From Eledone cirrhosa (lineage: Eukaryota): a stretch of DNA of 64,000 bases. Where the stretch lies: NCBI GenBank assembly GCA_964016885.1, contig OZ024758.1, forward strand, positions 14,012,001-14,076,000, read 5' to 3'. A program made the translations under genes and the position numbers. Shown piece by piece: positions 27,101 through 29,284 of the stretch; position 1 is the first letter of the stretch; every line of letters begins with the position of its first letter. The notes under the pieces were generated by a model that saw only the letters and a list, made by a program, of their open reading frames with translations, did not search any database and was not told the DNA's origin.

Positions 27101-27571
27101 CAGCCTAATTTGCATATTGAGTGAGTTAAATCGGTCAGGCATACCGAAAACGATAAATTGAAACAAAATGAAAACGAAATTTCATTTCTCACTCTTAGTA
27201 TGGCACTTACTTAAATGTAAGTATGCATGTATACGTACATACATATATGTATACAGACGTACAGTAGCATGCACATATATATATATATATATACATATAT
27301 ACATACATATGCATACAGGTACACATACATATATGCACGTATCAGTTTAGCGGCGCTTATTATAACGTCGCTTTGTTCGTTTGTATTACATTTAAGTAAG
27401 TGCCATACTAAGAGTGAGAAATGAAATTTCGTTTTCATTTTGTTTCAATTTATCGTTTTCGGTATGCCTGACCGATTTAACTCACTCAATATGCAAATTA
27501 GGCTGCTCAGCCGTTAATTTTCATAAGGAAAGTATATACTTTCGAACGTTCAACTATCTGGCAGATGGGTA

Positions 27572-27616
27572 AACGGTGCTGATGATAGCTAACAAGCTTG
27601 AAACTAGTACATCGTT
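27572..27616 (+). ncRNA. Type I hammerhead ribozyme (family E), first of 4 plus-strand copies
   Basis: AACGGUG-CUGAUGA-uAGCU aaca AGCUu-GAAA-CUAG-UA-CAUCGUU; predicted cleavage after A27609. Confidence 0.9.
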
Positions 27617-29284
27617 CCTGTGTCAGTGTTGAACAAAAAGGTGACGTGGTTGCCTTAACACCGTATGGCATAAATTCAGGCTGTTCAGTTTGTTTACAAA
27701 CGAACAAAGCGACGTTATAATAAGCGCCGCTAAACTGATACGTGCATATATGTATGTGTACCTGTATGCATATGTATGTATATATGTATATATATATATA
27801 TATATGTGCATGCTACTGTACGTCTGTATACATATATGTATGTACGTATACATGCATACTTACATTTAAGTAAGTGCCATACTAAGAGTGAGAAATGAAA
27901 TTTCGTTTTCATTTTGTTTCAATTTATCGTTTTCGGTATGCCTGACCGATTTAACTCACTCAATATGCAAATTAGGCTGCTCAGCCGTTAATTTTCATAA
28001 GGAAAGTATATACTTTCGAACGTTCAACTATCTGGCAGATGGGTAAACGGTGCTGATGATAGCTAACAAGCTTGAAACTAGTACATCGTTCCTGTGTCAG
28101 TGTTGAACAAAAAGGTGACGTGGTTGCCTTAACACCGTATGGCATAAATTCAGGCTGTTCAGTTTGTTTACAAACGAACAAAGCGACGTTATAATAAGCG
28201 CCGCTAAACTGATACGTGCATATATGTATGTGTACCTGTATGCATATGTATGTATATATGTATATATATATATATATATGTGCATGCTACTGTACGTCTG
28301 TATACATATATGTATGTACGTATACATGCATACTTACATTTAAGTAAGTGCCATACTAAGAGTGAGAAATGAAATTTCGTTTTCATTTTGTTTCAATTTA
28401 TCGTTTTCGGTATGCCTGACCGATTTAACTCACTCAATATGCAAATTAGGCTGCTCAGCCGTTAATTTTCATAAGGAAAGTATATACTTTCGAACGTTCA
28501 ACTATCTGGCAGATGGGTAAACGGTGCTGATGATAGCTAACAAGCTTGAAACTAGTACATCGTTCCTGTGTCAGTGTTGAACAAAAAGGTGACGTGGTTG
28601 CCTTAACACCGTATGGCATAAATTCAGGCTGTTCAGTTTGTTTACAAACGAACAAAGCGACGTTATAATAAGCGCCGCTAAACTGATACGTGCATATATG
28701 TATGTGTACCTGTATGCATATGTATGTATATATGTATATATATATATATATATGTGCATGCTACTGTACGTCTGTATACATATATGTATGTACGTATACA
28801 TGCATACTTACATTTAAGTAAGTGCCATGCTAAGAGTGAGAAATGAAATTTCGTTTTCATTTTGTTTCAATTTATCGTTTTCGGTATGCCTGACCGATTT
28901 AACTCACTCAATATGCAAATTAGGCTGCTCAGCCGTTAATTTTCATAAGGAAAGTATATACTTTCGAACGTTCAACTATCTGGCAGATGGGTAAACGGTG
29001 CTGATGATAGCTAACAAGCTTGAAACTAGTACATCGTTCCTGTGTCAGTGTTGAACAAAAAGGTGACGTGGTTGCCTTAACACCGTATGGCATAAATTCA
29101 GGCTGTTCAGTTTGTTTACAAACGAACAAAGCGACGTTATAATAAGCGCCGCTAAACTGATACGTGCATATATGTATGTGTACCTGTATGCATATGTATG
29201 TATATATGTATATATATATATATATATGTGCATGCTACTGTACGTCTGTATACATATATGTATGTACGTATACATGCATACTTA

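Follow-up and report, generated by a model that had tools for sequence, protein, structure and literature searches.

The locus examined here raises the question of whether a putative self-cleaving RNA motif that recurs in a tandem array acts singly or in pairs. The window, i.e. the whole 64,000-nt stretch of Eledone cirrhosa DNA that was analyzed, contains a hammerhead-like motif at positions 27548–27634. An initial annotation had described there a long, bulged stem I, a self-complementary stem III, and a U·U mismatch at the base of stem II, and had proposed that cleavage may need two adjacent units, such that multimers would be processed while a monomeric circle would be spared. On balance, the motif probably belongs to the canonical type I hammerheads of animals, in their short-stem-III form, and resides in a high-copy, tandem, non-LTR retrozyme; computed energies and characterized analogues suggest a weak cutter when alone and a much better one when units swap strands into a 6-bp ACUAGU stem III.

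The array is composed of tandem, non-coding units of 474 bp, each with one type I hammerhead; its GC content is below 45%, it is dispersed at high copy number, and no ORF of at least 120 aa was found inside it. Eleven identical cores are arranged head to head, seven on the minus arm and four on the plus arm. The left arm (23834–27385, minus strand) holds 7.5 units and seven hammerheads and terminates in (TA)n at a fixed position 318 nt past the cut (site 2). The right arm (27386–29284, plus strand) holds 4.0 units and four hammerheads and terminates in (TA)n at a different fixed position, ca. 254 nt past the cut (site 1). The arms are joined at 27385/27386 (junction region 27371–27400), where unit positions 86 and 251 abut. 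A terminal “tail” (23835–23902, minus strand), which is a Penelope-type signature, is present on the left arm only, and an internal (TA)/(TG)-rich tract (27746–27859, plus strand), predicted to form a long hairpin, is located just before site 1. In each unit, immediately ahead of the ribozyme, the octamer ATGCAAAT precedes a TATA-like box by 40 bases (octamer at 27491 and box at 27531, within 27491–27540, plus strand); the octamer or a one-letter variant of it is retained in subfamilies B and C, which are introduced below. Judged by its sequence, this arrangement is a candidate internal promoter, which we take to be of a kind resembling snRNA-type promoters.

The motif itself (plus strand, the first of four on the plus arm) was delineated using its core, pairing, computed fold, alignment, and Rfam. 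Its type I hammerhead characteristics are CUGAnGA, GAAA, and NUH disposed around three stems, with stem I open. At the gathering score, Rfam gave no hammerhead match, the sole match in the window being a weak tRNA-like one far from the motif; the best-scoring hammerhead family was Hammerhead_HH9 (18.5 bits against a gathering score of 52, E 0.043), to which the core aligned while the short stem III was penalized. An identity as a minimal Penelope hammerhead (min-HHR) was considered and rejected: the long stem II, the extra base after A9, and the short helix I without a defined loop were not matched.

The 5′ strand of distal stem I (27548–27569) forms three helices with 27617–27634, and the annotated pairings GUUCAAC/GUUGAAC, CUGGC/GUCAG, and AUGGG/CCUGU are all present there. 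A UAN segment (27570–27572) then faces U 27616 in an internal loop and, by analogy with newt ribozymes, is the presumed tertiary partner of loop II. The proximal helix had been annotated as 7 bp, and it required shortening: the A25–U69 pair is not formed in 14 of the 15 aligned copies, and A25 is a U in 51 of 134 full copies, spread over 28 of 48 loci. Because A25 is unpaired and variable, the proximal helix (27573–27578 with 27610–27615) is taken as 6 bp, followed by UAN opposite U. The catalytic core, CUGAUGA (CUGACGA in subfamily B), occupies 27579–27585, and stem II with its AACA loop occupies 27586–27599. A G10.1–C11.1 pair at the base of stem II is usual in hammerheads, not obligatory. 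It is absent here: the U·U noted in the annotation is found at 27586·27599 and in the aligned rows of subfamilies A and B, with C·A in those of subfamily C, such that the mismatch is kept in all 15 aligned rows. The self-complementary sequence AGCU occurs in both strands of stem II, which can consequently pair between units. The final core segment (27600–27609) comprises GAAA, the palindrome ACUAGU (27603–27608), and the cleavage triplet GUA, with the predicted cut between 27609 and 27610; in the family, the triplet is GUA or GUU. The self-complementarity claimed for stem III stands, but its description as A-U and C-G pairs around a 2-nt loop is probably not the best one. A C-G pair closing a 2-nt loop is sterically unlikely, so stem III is better read as a single A-U pair closing a palindromic CUAG tetraloop.

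The 87-mer folded with a computed energy of −27.4 kcal/mol (z = −3.62), and none of 200 shuffled sequences was equally stable. In the minimum-energy fold, the proximal helix was misregistered (pair probabilities of 0.18–0.8) and the A-U pair of stem III had a probability of ca. 0.

The conservation of these elements was assessed over the 3.0-Gb genome. A pattern search for the exact 39-nt core gave 10,198 matches, compared to 0 for a reversed control. Three subfamilies were distinguished, with ca. 10,200 (A), 8,077 (B), and 904 (C) members, or ca. 19,000 in total; these numbers are pattern matches and miss diverged copies. Subfamily B, the units of which are ca. 422 nt, was found via variants in contigs of four runs of unrecorded kind, which have no bearing on expression; subfamily C was found using a relaxed pattern. 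Fifteen distinct rows were hand-picked from these three related subfamilies and aligned. Of the stem I cells, 92.7% were paired, compared to 29–46% in slid controls, although the relatedness of the rows inflates the shuffle control. Two stem I pairs had changed on both sides: 29/65, in the proximal helix (G·U to U·G, in subfamily B), and 19/73, in the distal part (U·G to A-U). Seven more stem I pairs had one-sided changes, several of those in the distal strand preserving the pairing. This compensatory change supports the pairing of stem I, within three related subfamilies only; the pair 19/73 is not strict, because A·G is found there in 27 copies from the older part of subfamily A. Across copies, conservation extended to the UA in the loop of stem I and to the A residues of loop II.

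The CUAG of stem III was identical in all three subfamilies and was retained in 32 of 35 subfamily B contexts; both of its closing letters were altered in only 25 matches in the genome. Since CUAG is constant between subfamilies and invariant pairs are uninformative, covariation does not demonstrate the palindromy. A search for a subfamily with another palindrome gave these 25 matches, which were scattered and formed no family. The corresponding search for a subfamily with a canonical stem II base yielded subfamily C, with its C·A; among the 100 listed of its 904 matches, only scattered single variants were found. In one multi-unit subfamily B array (L157–L160; G000:C4:165.87 Mb), every copy has a broken stem III and a broken cleavage triplet. 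This array either multiplied with a ribozyme that was likely dead or was homogenized later.

Folding energies were calculated for two units in their natural context. For subfamily A, a strand-swapped double hammerhead had an energy of −187.4 kcal/mol, compared to −170.9 kcal/mol for two forced active monomers, −184.5 kcal/mol for two separate stem I + II folds, and −190.1 kcal/mol for the free minimum. The respective values for subfamily B were −180.2, −163.7, −177.3, and −182.7 kcal/mol. The swapped double hammerhead was favored over two active monomers by 16.5 kcal/mol; in subfamily A, it was 2.9 kcal/mol below the separate stem I + II folds and 2.7 kcal/mol above the free minimum. The latter was also swapped, but it was inactive, with the stem II strands paired between units via AGCU. 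In a monomer circle, distal stem I and stem II formed with probabilities near 1, the proximal helix was partly misregistered, and stem III was absent; forcing the active monomer in the circle cost 8.4 kcal/mol. Neither tertiary contacts nor the kinetics of folding enter the energy model. Within each unit, the 23-bp stem I should close during transcription; it must be exchanged to give the swapped dimer, and this step may be slow.

Two axolotl ribozymes provide measured analogues (PMC7229834). HHR_Amex1, which has one stem III pair, a palindromic tetraloop, and tertiary contacts, cleaved to 6% in 1 h as a monomer, and HHR_Amex2, which has a U·U at the base of stem II, cleaved to 22%; both cleaved far better as dimers. 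The computed preference for the dimer and these analogues support the two-unit idea of the annotation, and dimer-enhanced cleavage is likely on the strength of both. The word “need” is probably too absolute, because the axolotl monomers still cut in 1 h and newt monomers with a looped stem I extension can also cut; strict dimer dependence is not likely.

In the contrary case, contact between loop II and the loop of stem I would make the monomer adequate, as in many retrozymes of invertebrates; the palindrome would be incidental, and the circles would be protected by other means, e.g. by proteins. Most invertebrate retrozymes do cut well as monomers, coral and mussel monomers doing so at 0.8 and 0.1 per min, respectively, and how metazoan circles avoid self-cleavage is left open in the same paper from 2020, which proposes a block other than self-pairing (PMC7229834). 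A looped extension of helix I permits monomer cleavage in newt ribozymes, and in the Hammerhead_HH9 alignment the present motif has a stem II of 4 bp and a loop of 6 nt. Yet the efficient invertebrate type has two pairs and a tetraloop in stem III, compared to one pair and a tetraloop here, as in HHR_Amex1; despite its tertiary contacts, HHR_Amex1 cuts only 6% as a monomer (PMC7229834), and the probability of stem III in the computed fold of our motif was close to nil. Monomer adequacy is accordingly considered improbable, and cleavage enhanced by strand-swapping between units is the preferred reading.

The manner in which the arrays spread was studied in 51 subfamily A loci, namely 50 consecutive loci on C1 and the one in the window. 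Forty-five tail ends at site 2 (unit position 310–319) were located in 43 of the 51 loci, and 44 of these ends entered AT repeats. Of 43 other arm ends, about 32 were at site 1 (ca. position 254), as counted by eye. A head-to-head junction was present in 31 of the 51 loci and a tail-to-tail junction in one. Subfamily B has the same two fixed ends. Judged by sequence and by comparison with described insertions, the inverted 5′-truncated arm, the tail at one end, and the microsatellite target match mobilization by a Penelope-like element. The (TA)n flanks would mask any target-site duplication.

Units within an array differed by a median of 1, compared to 16 between arrays, and there were 14 haplotypes among 17 arrays. 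Because in many arrays all units of both arms share a haplotype particular to that array, a one-unit bottleneck followed by multimerization is called for, and the near-identity of the units fits such a bottleneck, e.g. a circle. The units could also have become nearly identical by template jumping between identical monomers or by later growth at the DNA level. In its full form, the DNA-level explanation states that the arrays grow by slippage, unequal exchange, or fold-back, or that they are assembly artifacts, with the ribozyme as a passenger. Local tandem amplification is considered in a preprint (10.64898/2026.07.22.740005), and simple repeats abound in the window, which also contains an assembly gap; against this stand the thousands of dispersed loci, the two fixed ends, the asymmetric arms with differing junctions, and a coding Penelope-like family in this genome that is laid out in the same way. 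Purely DNA-level growth is thus very improbable.

That coding family is young: its 150 scored matches were all identical. It has a GIY-YIG domain by Pfam, a 1278-aa ORF in tandem units, the same two-armed layout as the retrozyme, and a 58-nt tail. It was the one family tested as the autonomous partner of the retrozyme, and no such partner was found, there being no homology between the two outside (TA)n; in the search for a partner, tblastn gave hits in 8 of 81 loci. Owing to this lack of homology, the young family is a candidate driver and not a demonstrated parent. In the window, it is represented by a 3′ fragment (44888–46966) in a perfect head-to-head inversion (1008 bp, arms 100% identical). 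The fragment encodes GIY-YIG, preceded by a CX4CxxC motif as in Neptune/Nematis (PMC8557442; PMC11167929), and contains a minimal hammerhead near 46766, with the 58-nt tail on its left arm only; the units of the full copies (L112–L115), which bear the 1278-aa ORF, are ca. 4.28 kb. A second two-armed element is composed of 32493–33320 (minus strand) and 35410–36258 (plus strand), with arms that are 97% alike over 848 bp; it carries a different type I hammerhead with a longer stem III at 32554 (minus) and 36196 (plus). The window also contains a non-LTR retrotransposon ORF (11581–13467, plus strand) with a reverse transcriptase and a PHD-like finger, broken copies of it at 52066–57486, and a tRNA-like SINE head at 13767–13830 (a weak Rfam match).

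The ends of arms were then considered with respect to the cut site. All full arms begin downstream of it and run through it. Normalized breakpoint counts by pattern were 80 at the cut (+1), 64 at +8, and 71 at −13; for subfamily A alone, they were 30 at +1, 33 at +8, and 31 at +33. The control position −30, with a count of 160 (244 normalized), was much above the other positions: immediately ahead of the CUGA core, there were three to four times as many breakpoints or double changes as at the other positions tested. Because there is no large stop at the cut site, the templates were mostly intact there, as either circles or uncleaved multimers.

Arms that start at the cut were then compared with controls, using 40 regions that included 42 of 83 matches, as well as 20 matches from each of four sets of 21, 33, 31, and 21. 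In the first set of inversions, 11 of 24 had a partner arm that ended 12–18 nt beyond the cut, compared to 0 of 14 in the second, for which the pattern excludes most such junctions. Overall, the partner arm ended within 20 nt in 11 of 38 cut-start inversions, versus 0 of 18 or 2 of 28 in controls (p = 0.011 and 0.032, respectively, both post hoc). This is a weak hint of run-off at the cut site, since stalling in stem I could have the same effect. Small same-strand deletions that end at or adjoin the predicted cut site were observed at L187, L194, L205, L206, and L243; controls also have deletions, and those at the cut site could be ligation scars or microhomology deletions.

That arms read through the cut site bears on another explanation, in which even the dimeric ribozyme cuts very slowly or a Penelope protein is required, new arrays are copied from uncleaved multimers, and cleavage is a side event. 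The combination of two weakening features, the mismatched stem II base and the minimal stem III, is in keeping with it. So are two published results: an Anolis Penelope-like element uses unprocessed RNA, transposes in vitro without cleavage, and has a ribozyme that needs protein (PMC8557442; PMC11167929), and eight of nine Xenopus dimer constructs did not cut (10.64898/2026.07.22.740005). Such a course is nevertheless unlikely, given the array-specific haplotypes found in all units of both arms, which point to a one-unit bottleneck and then multimerization, the maintenance of the core and stems over three subfamilies, and the weak hint that arms run off precisely at the cut.

The preferred explanation, cleavage enhanced by pairing of units, may be put together as follows. 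Two neighboring units of a transcript would swap strands and build the 6-bp ACUAGU stem III, and the double hammerheads so formed are predicted to cut multimeric transcripts into monomers. A monomer, whether linear or circular, would retain stems I and II, and it is predicted to be largely stable because stem III is missing. Monomers would be circularized by a host ligase. With the two sides of a (TA)n break as primers, a Penelope-type reverse transcriptase would start inside the RNA at two sites and read round the template through the ribozyme site, and two opposed multi-unit arms would result. A more far-reaching version is put forward tentatively, and it may well be wrong: the ribozyme might be kept doubly weakened on purpose, by a mismatch that has survived the change from U·U to C·A and by a stem III that works only in the dimer. 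It would then cut multimers and spare circles, and the Penelope-type enzyme, starting at either side of a DNA break, would travel round these circles repeatedly (at least 13 times in L080). If true, this would answer, for an invertebrate retrozyme, how circles escape self-cutting, and the few arms that end precisely at the cut would preserve in the genome a trace of germ-line cleavage.

How far these arrangements are novel can be judged against the known systems. Literature searches touching on cephalopods or on the two-armed layout gave no description of the present family, although the supplement of PMC7229834 or subscription papers may contain one. The design has been published: Cervera and de la Peña (2014; PMC4209133) described the canonical metazoan type I hammerhead as having a helix I of 6 bp, a helix II of 4 bp, interacting loops, and a helix III of 1–2 bp with a palindromic loop, and stated that tandem copies can fold as dimers, such that multimers are cut and monomeric circles are spared. 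Since both the design and the protection idea were already in print, the finding of the initial annotation is confirmatory; the locus is a new example of a described design and not a new mechanism. Each of the three features is known, and their union in one motif, likely an invertebrate one, is a small new point. Its value is as a test system: the young, near-identical arrays and the three natural subfamilies are ready-made variants with which to ask how far cleavage depends on the dimer, what the stem II mismatch costs, and whether Penelope-type insertion uses circles as templates, a role that is proposed and not shown in the accessible text of the cited papers.

Compared with canonical metazoan hammerheads and the double-hammerhead model (PMC4209133; PMC6155905; PMC6765202), the motif has the same helix lengths, palindromic loop, and (as predicted) dimer fold, and the mark of the dimer type, a stem III of 1–2 bp with a palindromic loop in tandem copies, is present; it differs in the mismatch that replaces G10.1–C11.1 and in a stem I that extends to ca. 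23 bp. Like the axolotl HHR_Amex1 and HHR_Amex2 and newt satellite 2 (PMC7229834), it is a type I hammerhead in tandem units, with the stem III of Amex1 and the U·U of Amex2. Here, in contrast, both weakening features are combined in one motif, the 474-bp unit has an internal (TA)n tract, and the triplet is GUA or GUU; dimer-enhanced cleavage was measured in axolotl (PMC7229834), whereas it is predicted here from sequence and energies. With metazoan non-LTR retrozymes, which are regarded as non-autonomous Penelope-like elements (PMC7229834; 10.64898/2026.07.22.740005), the family shares non-coding tandem units of low GC content with one type I hammerhead each, thousands of loci, and the presence of Penelope-like elements in the same genome. 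Its 474-bp unit is just above one reported size range (150–450; PMC7229834) and inside another (51–972; 10.64898/2026.07.22.740005). Two-armed insertions or two fixed ends, as found here, are not described for retrozymes in the accessible portions of those two papers, and no parent pLTR was found in the comparison with the one coding family. Insertions of Penelope-like elements (PMC8557442; PMC11167929) resemble the present arrays in their inverted 5′-truncated copy, in a tail that is confined to one end, in their preference for microsatellite targets, and in having two internal start sites that lie downstream of the ribozyme; the arrays differ from those elements in having no ORF, a tail of ca. 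64 nt rather than 30–40, and a canonical rather than a minimal Penelope ribozyme.
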